Shown: positions 11,898 through 35,495 of the stretch, piece by piece | Position numbering within the stretch: position 1 is the stretch's first letter | Layout of the letters: each line of letters opens with the position of its first letter | Assembly: GCA_963701075.1 (NCBI GenBank) | Contig: OY969559.1 | Coordinates: forward strand, 320,001-384,000 | Length of the DNA stretch: 64,000 bases | DNA from: an uncultured Nitrososphaerota archaeon | Lineage (GTDB): Archaea; Thermoproteota; Nitrososphaeria; Nitrososphaerales; Nitrosopumilaceae | Direction of reading: 5' to 3' | Translations under genes and position numbers: made by a program | Notes under the pieces: model-generated | Told to the model about the DNA's origin: nothing | Databases searched by the model: none | Seen by the model: the letters and a program-made list of their open reading frames with translations, nothing else

Positions 11898-12281
11898 TTA
11901 CAAATTACTAGTTTTCTTTTTTATATTTTCTATAATTTCCAATTTTCTTGTGATATCCATGTTTGGTTCCATGGTAACATAGACTGTTCTGTGTTTTGGA
12001 TAGACAACTATCTGCGTAACCTTTTGGCGTTCTATATGTACATAGTTGACAGAACCTAAACTCCTGTCAAATTGCTTTCGGATCTTTCTTCTTATGGCTA
12101 CCTGTTTACAAAAATGTTCTTCCTCTTTTTGTGACTTGAGGGATGTTTTACCTTCTTTCATTATGGCTTCTGATATGTTCCCTTTAAGATCTATAATTGC
12201 AGCAAACCGCATCATTGGATCTAGTTCTAAGATATCCTCTACTATGGGAAGTAGGTTTATCTTGTGATTATTCTTTTTCAA
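11898..12281 (-). CDS. Thaumarchaeal roadblock/profilin-like (DUF6659-type) protein
   Basis: ILELDPMMRFAAIIDLKG...FDRSLGSVNYVHIERQKV pattern. Confidence 0.65.
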   Translation of the reverse strand: MKKNNHKINLLPIVEDILELDPMMRFAAIIDLKGNISEAIMKEGKTSLKSQKEEEHFCKQVAIRRKIRKQFDRSLGSVNYVHIERQKVTQIVVYPKHRTVYVTMEPNMDITRKLEIIENIKKKTSNL

Positions 12282-12448: not shown

Positions 12449-13039
12449 ATGTTTGAAAAGTTTCGAAAGAAAAAGGATGAATTTGAACCAGATTCCACTA
12501 AAAAGGAAGAAGAAGGTGTCATAGCTGAAACCACGCAACATAAACCCCAAGAAATAGAACCAGAGAAAACCCCTAATGTTGTTGAACAACCTAATCCTAA
12601 GCCTTCTGAACAGGTAAAAATACCGGAACCTATACAGCAAAGAACAATGAGCACTTCAGGAGAAGATATAGGAATTGGAGCCCTCATGGATAAGCGAAAC
12701 AAGCTTGAGGAGACAATCGATTATGTGGGTTTAATGATCAAGAATTTGAAAGATAAGAGGACAAATTTAGAAAAGAGCATAGAAGACGAATCTGTAGATA
12801 TTAAGAATCTCAAGGAGAAATTGGTTAAGGTAGGTCAGTATATAGAAGAAGAAAAACAGGGAATAAGGACCCTGCAACAAAAGAGAAGTAATGTTGAAAG
12901 AGAGGCAGATGATGTTGCTGCAATTATCAACAATCTGCGCGAAAAATTATTGAGTATAGATAGAGTAGTAAACGAAGAAGGTAGTAAGATAGAGAAATTT
13001 AAAGATGCTCGACCTAAGTCAGAATCTTCCTTCAGCTAG
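12449..13039 (+). CDS. Coiled-coil protein with disordered N-terminus
   Basis: Long heptad-repeat C-terminal two thirds. Confidence 0.75.
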   Translation: MFEKFRKKKDEFEPDSTKKEEEGVIAETTQHKPQEIEPEKTPNVVEQPNPKPSEQVKIPEPIQQRTMSTSGEDIGIGALMDKRNKLEETIDYVGLMIKNLKDKRTNLEKSIEDESVDIKNLKEKLVKVGQYIEEEKQGIRTLQQKRSNVEREADDVAAIINNLREKLLSIDRVVNEEGSKIEKFKDARPKSESSFS

Positions 13040-13410
13040 AAGGTAAAACCTTCTTTCAGCATACTATTCAGATTTTCCTTTATTTCTTCTTCGGATGACA
13101 ATGAGTCAAGGTCTCTGATTAGTACCTCTGTTGCAAGACATTGGTTCTTTGAGAACTGATAATAACAGTCTAGTTTTTCCTGGTAGGTTTTTGCATTATA
13201 ATAGATAGTCCAAAAATTTTCTGTGGAATGTTGTACATAAAGTAAAAACTTTCGAATGACTATCTCAATTTTATGAGAGGGATTGTCTTTCATTAGTCCA
13301 ATTAAAATCTGCTCTAGTTTACTGTCCAGATTAGATTCGTAAATGAGTTGGTAAATATCCCCGTCTTTTGCCACAACCGCTTTACGCGACTGTATCATAA
13401 AAGCTTTCAT
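13036..13410 (-). CDS. Hypothetical protein
   Basis: 124 aa ORF with normal globular composition. Confidence 0.65.
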   Translation of the reverse strand: MKAFMIQSRKAVVAKDGDIYQLIYESNLDSKLEQILIGLMKDNPSHKIEIVIRKFLLYVQHSTENFWTIYYNAKTYQEKLDCYYQFSKNQCLATEVLIRDLDSLSSEEEIKENLNSMLKEGFTF

Positions 13411-13527
13411 CGATAATTTTCAAAAAATTCGCCATTTGTATGTAACAATTTGAGTTATCTTAAAAAAATTAAGATTTCAACTATAAAATTATTCACAATA
13501 CTTAAATAATTTGCATGCGTATTAATT

Positions 13528-13720
13528 ATCCCTGCCAAAGGAAATCCTCCCAAGACAGGCATCATGCAGCAGACATGTGATACGGTCAGGGTCAAATCCC
13601 TCCGCAGAAGTTCCAAGGAGAAATTCCGAGGATGTGGCGACAATGGTCGTCATCTCTTTGAATGCCACGGCATTCTCACATGACGTGTGAATCACACACG
13701 TCTGCATGATAGAATTTTTT
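13528..13720 (+). ncRNA. Candidate structured non-coding RNA (about 190 nt)
   Basis: Nested stems 13561-69/13702-10 and 13574-80/13676-82 plus five internal hairpins; CTTAAATA box at 13501; T6 at 13715-20. Confidence 0.55.
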
Positions 13721-13774
13721 CCAATCACAACAAACCAAATTATAATTTTTTATAATGATAAAAGTTTGCGTCGG

Positions 13775-14016
13775 TGAACGCTATCAATTATTTTATCAAA
13801 TCCTAGTTACTGGATTTTCTATTTTTAGCATCAAGTTCGGTCATCTTTTTCAAAAGTATACTACAAGGTCTTGAAGGAAAATATCTGAAAGTTAACAGTG
13901 TTATGATTGGAATAATGTTTTTGTAGGTTCGCTTGTAACTGATGAACTCACAAAGTTATTTGATTACTTGATACTATTCTTTTACAATATTGGTTGTTTT
14001 CCTAGTTCTGTTCAAG
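13775..14016 (+). pseudogene. Possible decayed membrane-protein gene interrupted by the IS
   Basis: Hydrophobic fragments in shifting frames (LLDFLFLASSSVIFFKSIL..., YSFTILVVFLVLFK) ending at the IS target site. Confidence 0.25.
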
Positions 14017-14890
14017 CAACTCATCCTAAAACTGATCATTTAGTAAATTTTTGACGATCACTGGATCTATCAGATGGAATAATCACACTGATTCCATGAA
14101 ATTCCAAGAAATCTCAGACAAACAATGGGAAACAATACAAAAACACCTTCCATCGCCTGCCAGAACAGGCAGACCAAGGTGTGATGACCGTACCACAATA
14201 AATGGAATCATGTTTATTCTGGTTACCGGCTGCAGGTGGGAGGAGATGCCAAAAAGATACGGCTCAAAATCAACTGCTCATCTCAGATTGCAGAAATGGC
14301 AGCAAAAAGGAATCTGGCAAAATATCTTATCTGATGCAATAAAATCAGCACACCATTCAGGGAAGATACAGCTGCAAAAGGTATCGGTTGATTCGTCAAC
14401 TGTTGCAGCCAAAAAAGGGGAGATGTGACAGGATACGACGGATTCAAAAGAATATCAGGCACGAAAATACATGTTGCAGTAGATTGCAATTCACTTCCAG
14501 TATCAATAATTATTGGTCCTGCAAATGAGCATGATTCAACAAAGCTCATCGATGTGATGGAAAACATCTCTGAATATCTTGATGATGATTCCATAGAACA
14601 GATCGTAGCTGTATATGCAGACAAGGGTTATGATGCAAAAAAGATTAGAGAGTATCTAAAGAATAGAAACATCAGGGACTGCATTCCATCCAGAAATTTC
14701 AAAAATAACAACAATAAGAAAAGTCAGAGTAATTACAACAGGACAAGATACGTGGTGGAGAGATTCTTTGCATGGCTCAAATGTGGATTCCACAGAATTA
14801 GAATCAGATATGAGAGAATTGCAGAAAATTATCTGGCATTTCTTAACATTACTGGAATAATGATGTATTGGAGGGTTTTAGGATGAGTTG
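14017..14890 (+). mobile_element. IS5-family insertion sequence, 874 bp
   Basis: 16-bp perfect TIR CAACTCATCCTAAAAC (14017-32 / 14875-90); AAG on both flanks (14014-16, 14891-93) as a 3-bp target duplication. Confidence 0.93.
14096..14886 (+). CDS. IS5-family DDE transposase in two ORFs joined at an A6G4 slippery site
   Basis: orfA TGRPR..GCRW..MP..YG..ST; orfB in the -1 frame GTKIHVAVD, ADKGYD, RYVVERFFAWLK; AAAAAAGGGG at 14411-20. Confidence 0.9.
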
Positions 14891-14927: not shown

Positions 14928-15563
14928 CTAGATAAAGCTGGAAGATGATTGACTGCCGGCAGGCGTTGAAGGCAACTTGTCATTGACAGCCGCCTCTGCA
15001 ACTGCTGCAGCCTCTTGAATGATCTTCTCTGATTCCTCGTCTGAAACTCCGGAATCTATTCCAAATTCTCCGCCATGGAATGTATCCGTCATTAATCCTC
15101 CGAGCATATCAGTCATTCCTGATAACTCACGATCTGCTTCTGGCATGAACTGTACCAGAGATGATCTTAGACTCTTCATCAAGCCGATTGTTGGCATGAT
15201 TGTAGTGACCATATCGCCTAGATCGTGGAAGGTATTTAGTCTAAGCTCGATTTGCTCAAGTGCAATCCTGGCATTTCCTAGGAGCTTGGTAACTTTCCTG
15301 ACCTCAGCTAACTCTTTTGATAAAACTCTGCTAGCCGTAGTATCGTGCTGTTGAGTAGCAATTACAATTCTTTTGAATAACTTTTCATCTCTTTGTTTTA
15401 ATTTTGTAAGCATTCCGTCAAGTTTTCCAGTTTGGGCCTGAAGTCTTTTTACTGCTTGTTCCATTCTTGGCTTCAGAGGACCTTTTGGTCTTATTGTATC
15501 ATTAATTCTTTCATTAATACTTGGTGTCTGTGGTCTTTGCCAACTCTTATCAAACGTTGTCAT
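14928..15563 (-). CDS. ESCRT-III / CdvB paralog (Snf7 family)
   Basis: Helical Snf7 core: KLKQRDEKLFKRIV...ELAEVRKV...ALEQIELRL...EKIIQEAAAVAE. Confidence 0.88.
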   Translation of the reverse strand: MTTFDKSWQRPQTPSINERINDTIRPKGPLKPRMEQAVKRLQAQTGKLDGMLTKLKQRDEKLFKRIVIATQQHDTTASRVLSKELAEVRKVTKLLGNARIALEQIELRLNTFHDLGDMVTTIMPTIGLMKSLRSSLVQFMPEADRELSGMTDMLGGLMTDTFHGGEFGIDSGVSDEESEKIIQEAAAVAEAAVNDKLPSTPAGSQSSSSFI

Positions 15564-35418: not shown

Positions 35419-35495
35419 TGGTGGGACCGGCCGGACTTGAACCGGCGACCTCTAGCACCCCAGGCTAGCATCATACCAAGCTAGACTACGGTCCC
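35419..35495 (-). tRNA. tRNA-Pro(GGG), intronless, CCA encoded
   Basis: GGGACCG acceptor stem, CTAGC-CTGGGGT-GCTAG anticodon arm, GGTTCAAGTCC T-arm, ends ACCA. Confidence 0.97.

Follow-up and report, generated by a model that had tools for sequence, protein, structure and literature searches.

The window analysed here is a 64,000-nt stretch from an uncultured archaeon of the genus Nitrosotalea (Nitrosopumilaceae; assembly GCA_963701075.1, contig OY969559.1, positions 320,001 to 384,000). On its plus strand it carries a predicted structured RNA of ~193 nt at positions 13528-13720 (G000:C1:333528-333720), which is matched over its full length by a covariance model (CM) of the family, termed R1, with 184.3 bits. 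The sequence is present as a single copy in the 1.92-Mb genome. Its GC content is 50-53% over positions 13550-13700, as compared to ~21-38% in the AT-rich surroundings. A first-pass annotation had described the region as an unannotated multi-branch RNA, listing a TATA-like sequence, a closing stem, an inner stem with four hairpins, a further hairpin on the 3′ side and a T6 tract. All of these features were found in place, the third of the four hairpins at 13634-53.

The TATA box of the predicted RNA gene, CTTAAATA at 13501-13508 (+), falls in the same column in the homolog alignment. The sequence [CT]TTAAAT occupies this single column in 21/21 homologs that extend far enough, a count that includes three from unpublished genomes, and the spacing between the TATA box and the RNA is repeated in distant genera. 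Because the usual archaeal TATA spacing would place the start near 13528, this position was taken as the probable 5′ end, and the 3′ end would lie within the T-tract. A further element, TGCGTA (13516-13521, +), is located ~8 nt 3′ of the TATA box and 7-8 nt 5′ of the RNA. In most relatives it reads CACGTA at a fixed spacing, distant genera included, and it may be a promoter-proximal element or represent the first transcribed bases. The T6 tract at 13715-13720 (+) is likely an archaeal terminator. A T-tract of T5 or longer is found at the 3′ end in 40 of 43 distinct Nitrosotalea-clade homologs and T4 in the other three, and distant homologs retain T6. The TATA box and the oligo-T tract are the signals expected of a stand-alone archaeal non-coding RNA (ncRNA) gene.

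Environmental sequences also cover the locus. A soil library (X1; labelled transcriptomic, probably DNA; word share 0.10) yielded two contigs from a relative that is 90-95% alike, spanning 13300-13559 and 13562-13734; they are uninformative on transcript ends, strand and level. A pattern scan of metagenomes gave 48 contigs, all of at least 1.4 kb and none of the size of the predicted ~190-nt RNA. Since all 48 are far longer than the RNA, nothing in this set indicates transcript-derived assembly.

Fold and covariation

The minimum free energy (MFE) structure obtained with ViennaRNA/RNAfold for 13535-13720 (+) is the multi-branch fold that the first-pass annotation had drawn, with an energy of -62.4 kcal/mol. 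The average of 200 dinucleotide shuffles was -46.4 kcal/mol, giving z = -3.68, and none of the 200 was as stable. For the minus strand z was -2.57 and 1/200 shuffles was as stable. With the 5′ hairpin P0 included (13528-13720) the MFE was -67.0 kcal/mol.

The fold is framed by a 9-bp closing stem, P1, with strands ATCATGCAG/CTGCATGAT (13561-69/13702-10, +), which was obtained with RNAfold. P1 is near-invariant within the Nitrosotalea clade and fully compensated in distant homologs, where it reads AUGCAGUAG/CUACUGCAU and UGCAACAG/CUGUUGCA. It forms a three-way junction with P2 and P7. The 7-bp stem P2, CATGTGA/TCACATG (13574-80/13676-82, +), in turn closes a four-way junction of P3, P4/P5 and P6. 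Hairpin P3 (13583-13604, +) consists of CGG/CCG plus AGGG/CCCU pairings, helices 4 and 5 of the CM alignment, and shows double changes at 6/6 modelled pairs. The T-loop-like sequence GGGUCAAAUCCC in P3 is not conserved, and subgroup B has a GCAA loop there. The small hairpin P4a (13617-13627, +) is GGA-GAAAU-UCC with a 5-nt loop in the window and varies between subgroups; the closest relatives of the window have GGA-GAAA-UCC with a GNRA-type loop, the GNRA-like conservation being judged by eye. The outer pairs of hairpin P5 (13628-13659, +) covary, and in its tip, GACAAUGGUC at 13639-48, all positions of GACAAWGGUC except the middle W are invariant in 44/44 aligned sequences, distant genera included. 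The inner junction is completed by hairpin P6, GAAUGC/GCAUUC (13660-13675, +), which has double changes at 5/5 modelled pairs (helix 11).

The 3′ hairpin P7, ACGUGUG/CACACGU (13683-89/13695-701, +), follows the 3′ strand of P2 and precedes that of P1, and 94-96% of its cells are paired in the MAFFT-only and CM alignments. It had been annotated as a perfect 8-bp hairpin. The hairpin is indeed there, with only 7 bp that can coexist with P1 and P2, because G13682 is shared with P2 and C13702 with P1. A conserved hairpin at the 5′ side, P0 (13531-13559, +), had been overlooked. It is formed by 13531-36/13554-59 with a C.A mismatch and by GGA/UCC at 13540-42/13548-50, and it is probably part of the predicted transcript. 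Hardly any variation is seen in its internal loops, CAAAGG and CCCAAGA, the former being a second occurrence of the CAAAGG sequence of the P5 tip, and one of its pairs (columns 8/32) changes from G-C to A-U in 16/43 sequences.

R1 was built from 43 distinct sequences and comprises 194 positions and 45 pairs. In the alignment made with MAFFT only (A2, 43 sequences), 94.9% of the cells were paired versus 32-45% with slid partners, and 17 of the 45 pairs showed double changes (97 cells). The CM alignment of 60 distinct sequences (A3) gave 95.5% paired cells versus 34-44% when slid, with double changes at 27/45 pairs. For 40 distinct sequences from metagenome contigs (A8), which were aligned separately and may overlap with species used to build the model, these values were 95.6%, 34-46% and 21/45. 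Compensatory changes were found in all three alignments, with A3 and A8 being biased towards the model because both were fitted to it. None of 500 column shuffles of A2 matched the double-change pair count, the double-change cell count or the covariation score, a control that overstates significance because the sequences are kin. Stronger arguments for covariation come from the slid-partner control and from the large number of different pair types.

P2 was left out of the model because MAFFT misaligns it. Between subgroups it covaries as CAUGUGA/UCACAUG, CGCGUGA/UCACGCG, GUGUGA/UCACAC, AAAGC/GCUUU and UGAGC/GCUCA. P2 duplexes formed with their own partners average -7.3 kcal/mol versus -5.2 kcal/mol for partners from other sequences. 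In a shorter MAFFT alignment (A7) P1 of the distant homologs is out of register. Judged from these alignments, base pairs are kept by compensatory change beyond the controls and the fold is more than chance would give. G-U pairs had been said to favour the plus strand. This was correct in direction, with 106 G.U/U.G cells versus 58 A.C/C.A cells in the 43 homologs, and the effect is only modest.

The first-pass annotation had also proposed a conformational switch in which 13571-79 pairs with 13695-703. Eight of the nine pairs can form, with one A.C mismatch (-8.7 kcal/mol). In this arrangement the 5′ strand of P2 pairs with the 3′ strand of P7 and P1 is extended into a rod. Over 60 sequences the alternative helix averages -5.6 kcal/mol versus -2.3 kcal/mol when shuffled, and 24/60 reach -7 kcal/mol or better. 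In subgroup C1 it amounts to only about -3.1 kcal/mol. P2 and P7 have similar strands in subgroups A, B and C2, and this likeness alone would be expected to give alternative complementarity. A conformational switch is possible on the basis of these pairings.

Homologs and neighbouring genes

BLASTN matches were found in 21/24 Nitrosotalea genomes. In the other three (54-78% complete) the CM matched over the full length with 163-169 bits, bringing the count to 24/24. With BLASTN there were no matches in 16 genomes of 16 other families in the order. A pattern scan with one genome per species gave 43 records. A search of 151 family genomes with R1 gave matches in genera g1 (9/9), g22 (10/10), g25 (5/5), g42 (9/9), g27 (2/2), g37 (1/2) and g29 (1/9), and none in the searched genomes of 20 other genera. 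The homologs of g27, g37, g29 and g39 are full-length and weaker (17-58 bits). In the order outside the family, 3/127 genomes gave marginal matches of 64-75 nt only (E 0.002-0.01), which we take as noise. These genome tallies include the unpublished genomes G011, G012, G019, G130, G131 and G239; the alignments and covariation counts do not. The pattern GAYGACAAWGGTYRTC, scanned over 401 family genomes, is too strict, as it misses the window's own genome, and its off-target matches L111, L122, L123 and L129 are without an R1 match. By this distribution the RNA belongs to the core of Nitrosotalea and three sister genera, with a sporadic, accessory occurrence in four more genera of Nitrosopumilaceae.

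By BLASTN the g29 variant occurs in 2/41 g29 genomes, twice in one of them. The latter genome, G407, has two loci with a plastocyanin-like gene and the RNA on separate contigs, L138 (C73) and L139 (C59). Their RNAs are 81% and 76% identical to that of G117, and they could result from duplication or from two strains in one bin.

In 35 of the 44 Nitrosotalea-clade loci a transporter gene (Pfam MFS_1) lies ~85-120 nt 3′ of the T-tract on the same strand, with a divergent gene for a 124-aa protein on the 5′ side of the RNA, and the same holds for 8/8 sampled g22/g25/g42 loci. Between the T-tract and the start of the MFS gene lies a conserved block that could serve the transporter as a promoter of its own. 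In seven of the 44 clade loci the MFS gene is gone or a remnant; no trace is left in five, and in the window and in L043 a C-terminal piece remains. Identity among these seven genomes averages 0.906 in the RNA and 0.863 in the promoter region, and 0.669 over the 200 nt downstream. With L071 (identical to L055) added, 32/80 unpaired columns vary versus 16/118 paired columns. The RNA is thus under structural constraint without the downstream transporter.

The remnant in the window, ~13819-13979 (+), matches residues 342-395 of the L014 protein. It consists of two pieces overlapping by one base (a frameshift), and the first 341 codons are gone. Further downstream an insertion sequence of the IS4/IS5 family (14051-14886, +) with two overlapping open reading frames (ORFs; DUF4096, then DDE_Tnp_1) lies between the RNA and a Snf7/CdvB-like gene (14928-15563, -). 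The MFS deletion is not tied to the insertion sequence, because the close relative L002/L029 is without both the insertion sequence and the transporter. In L038, a metagenome-assembled genome of the Nitrosotalea clade, the MFS gene 3′ of the RNA is split over several frames, which may be a second, independent case of transporter decay.

In the more distant genera the surroundings of the RNA are different. In g37 and g29 it is flanked by a plastocyanin-like gene (Pfam Copper-bind) and by an unrelated gene of 422-466 amino acids (aa), in g27 it is located 3′ of an RtcA gene and followed by convergent genes, and in g39 it is flanked neither by an MFS gene nor by the 124-aa neighbour described below. 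The plastocyanin-like gene directly adjoins the 422-aa gene in three further g29 genomes, which lack the RNA at this site; R1 with filters off gave no match in the RNA-less g29 loci (9 loci, 31.6 kb). The spacer in these genomes resembles the G117 sequence that follows the RNA T-tract. Promoter, RNA and terminator therefore behave as one unit that can be inserted or deleted. These arrangements show that the RNA is independent of any one neighbouring gene.

Upstream of the RNA and divergent from it, the window encodes a conserved 124-aa protein, UP124 (13036-13410, -). Across four genera its core of ~108 aa has identities of 65-94%, and its true start is probably near residue 13-15, because many relatives have stops in the first 10 codons. 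No Pfam family matched, and a Foldseek search against the PDB gave nothing at E up to 0.001. The AlphaFold model is a helical bundle (pLDDT 70.3). A DUF6659 protein is encoded at 11898-12281 (-) of the window, and a homolog occurs 3′ of the plastocyanin-like gene in g29 genome L149, which hints at a wider shared synteny of the region across genera. The distant homologs L103 (2010-2050), L107, L138, L139, L102 and L101 have a motif pair, CTATATAG / ACTATAGA, that was not seen in that form in Nitrosotalea. The motifs are repeated, partly palindromic, and located 5′ of the TATA box, ~70 nt upstream of the RNA. They may be a candidate regulator site.

Comparison with known RNA families

The first-pass annotation had not recognised a tRNA, SRP RNA, RNase P RNA or known riboswitch, and database searches agree with this. 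A search of the whole window with the 4227 models of Rfam 15 at gathering thresholds gave a tRNA-Pro at 35422-35495 as the sole match. For 13350-13900 at E up to 10 there were three noise rows (best E 2.1), and for eight homolog loci there was no match at E up to 0.1. ARAGORN found no tRNA at the RNA locus and only the tRNA-Pro, at 35419-35495. A tRNA or tRNA-like identity is ruled out by these results and by the non-conserved T-loop-like sequence in P3. RNase P and SRP RNA are ruled out since the genome has bona fide copies at other loci: RNase P RNA (RF00373) at G000:C1:1009229-1009504 (175.3 bits) and SRP RNA (RF01857) at G000:C1:621605-621917 (108.2 bits).

Guide RNAs were rejected as well. 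Many relatives have AUGAUGA, which resembles a C box (RUGAUGA) of a box C/D small RNA (sRNA), in the 5′ strand of P5, without a conserved CUGA partner. At this site the window has GUGGCGA and other relatives have UUGUUGA. An H/ACA sRNA does not fit because the 3′ tail has no ACA; it reads AUAGAAUUUUUU, which is replaced by UGAUUUUUU in distant homologs.

A comparison with Ro60-associated Y RNA/YrlA shows likeness in layout. Both have a long 5′/3′ closing stem around a branched module and a 3′ U-rich tail, and the inner junction is cloverleaf-like, P2 being 7 bp long, the linker 2 nt, and P6 directly adjoining P2 on its 3′ strand. However, no Rfam Y_RNA or tRNA model matched, and PF05731 (TROVE/Ro60) gave no matches in the window's own genome, which is 95% complete, whereas control genomes matched as expected. 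This candidate was therefore set aside. In one case, at L101:2-610 (+) in genome G051 of g27, an RtcA (RNA 3′-phosphate cyclase) gene is located ~300 nt upstream of the RNA homolog. An RtcA neighbourhood is typical of bacterial Ro/Y-RNA loci.

The orphan large bacterial ncRNAs known from comparative genomics (raiA-motif, OLE, ROOL/GOLLD) were compared by description, and the RNA resembles them in its mode of discovery and its complexity. Like the RNA studied here, they are GC-enriched intergenic islands in AT-rich genomes, with a covarying multi-helix junction and invariant loop and junction nucleotides, they are restricted to certain lineages, and their function is not deducible from sequence. 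The present RNA differs in its archaeal origin, its TATA promoter and oligo-T terminator, the lack of an Rfam 15 match and, relative to OLE, ROOL and GOLLD, its smaller size. As with RNase P RNA and SRP 7S RNA, it would be a structured RNA that stands alone under a promoter of its own and is probably bound by protein. It has no match to either of these two and does not occur throughout the family.

No description of a Nitrosotalea non-coding RNA of this kind was found in print, as far as the top-ranked papers of the literature searches go. In the part of PMC13475601 consulted, on another ammonia oxidiser, only SRP and RNase P RNAs are mentioned, and the part consulted of PMC5069720 names no thaumarchaeal ncRNA; supplementary transcription-start tables of the latter might bear on marine relatives. 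The RNA family is real, well supported and previously uncatalogued, with its transcription and function being predicted from the sequence.

Interpretation and significance

We consider the element to be a stand-alone, trans-acting structured ncRNA of ~193 nt, most likely the RNA of a ribonucleoprotein, and assign this a probability of roughly 0.6. The RNA would be transcribed from its own archaeal TATA promoter and end at the oligo-T tract. It would act in trans through its three-dimensional fold and not as the leader of a neighbouring gene, most likely as the RNA part of a ribonucleoprotein, with the GACAAWGGUC tip of P5, the CAAAGG of P0 and the 3′ U-tail as putative sites of protein contact. 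U-tails bind Sm-like proteins. That the RNA stands alone, as initially annotated, is supported by the covariation, the conserved signals of its own, its persistence without the downstream gene and its occurrence in other contexts.

Several observations weigh against this. Promoter use, transcript ends and strand are deduced from sequence features, with the G.U excess giving a modest strand signal. In archaeal termination, T5-6 tracts, and the T4 found in 3/43 homologs, may permit read-through. The scores of the distant homologs are low (17-58 bits), and the column shuffles, as mentioned, overstate the significance of the covariation. No protein partner of the RNA was identified. UP124 is uninformative in this respect as far as its model goes, and it is unlinked to the RNA in distant genera. 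Finally, the MFS gene downstream in most clade loci and in all those sampled from g22, g25 and g42 would also agree with a leader function.

Such a cis-acting leader, riboswitch-like or condition-sensing, would belong to the MFS transporter and set read-through at the T-tract, the window copy being a leftover after transporter deletion. Besides the synteny, the short T-tracts and the alternative P2/P7 helix agree with this, and large aptamers likewise have a multi-junction form with invariant bases in loops and junctions. As in terminator-type riboswitches, a conserved folded domain comes first, then a hairpin and a U-tract, and in most species a transporter gene lies 3′ of these; a competing helix is possible. 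We nevertheless regard a leader as unlikely. The RNA persists under structural constraint in the seven sampled genomes without the transporter, no MFS gene adjoins it in g27, g29, g37 and g39, and in g29 it has been inserted or deleted 5′ of a gene whose own upstream region is retained. The constant gene position expected of a riboswitch or cis leader is thus not seen: the MFS gene is absent or a remnant in 7/44 loci, the neighbours differ in four genera, and in g29 the RNA is a presence/absence cassette. The conserved block before the MFS start, as a possible promoter of the transporter itself, also speaks against a leader. The alternative pairing is weak in subgroup C1 (-3.1 kcal/mol), no known riboswitch class matches and, to our knowledge, control by terminator-hairpin riboswitches is not established for archaeal RNA polymerase.

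The RNA might also act in trans without a dedicated protein, as a small ribozyme or as a free sensor of a ligand or condition that changes between the three-way-junction form and the rod with extended P1. Its fold is as complex as those of known ribozymes and riboswitches, and GNRA-type loops occur in P4a (GAAA, closest relatives) and P3 (GCAA, subgroup B). Subgroups A, B and C2 preserve the complementarity needed for the alternative helix despite their differing sequences, but this may follow from the likeness of P2 and P7. Furthermore, there is no likeness to self-cleaving ribozyme or riboswitch models in Rfam and no conserved processing-site signature was recognised, which makes a protein-free RNA improbable in our estimate. 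A locus with no functional RNA at all is largely refuted and has a very small residual chance; it might then be an intergenic relic rich in GC, a small antisense ORF, or an element acting at the DNA level, for instance a set of protein-binding palindromes. In favour of this, both strands fold well and the window contains antisense ORFs of 62 and 68 aa. However, compensatory changes maintain pairs in all helices, the G.U cells exceed the A.C cells, and the promoter and T-tract are in plus orientation. The antisense ORFs, the codon-level conservation of which had been named initially as an alternative, are not conserved. Their frame is broken or shifted among relatives, homolog lengths fall into all three classes modulo 3 (19/16/8 of 43), and close relatives use different antisense frames. 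A 15-codon plus-strand ORF starting from an AUG in the P5 loop was also rejected, as the AUG is missing wherever the loop is CAAAGG.

We know of very few structured RNA families in archaea beyond rRNA, tRNA, RNase P, SRP and guide sRNAs, and of none such in ammonia-oxidising Nitrososphaerota. Elsewhere, covarying RNAs of ~190 nt with nested junctions proved to be a ribozyme, a riboswitch or the core of a ribonucleoprotein. We tentatively propose, at slightly less than even odds, that the stand-alone RNA represents a new archaeal structured RNA class, core to the acidophilic ammonia oxidisers (Nitrosotalea and sister genera) and a portable promoter-RNA-terminator cassette in other Nitrosopumilaceae, which would have a biochemical or regulatory task of its own as a ribonucleoprotein or as a trans-acting sensor toggling between the junction form and the rod with extended P1. 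The covariance model allows annotation of the gene in genomes and metagenome contigs, well over 100 in all, and the predicted RNA is a concrete, testable object in culturable organisms. Invariant at a hairpin tip, it is core in an ecologically important lineage of acid-soil nitrifiers and variably present elsewhere.

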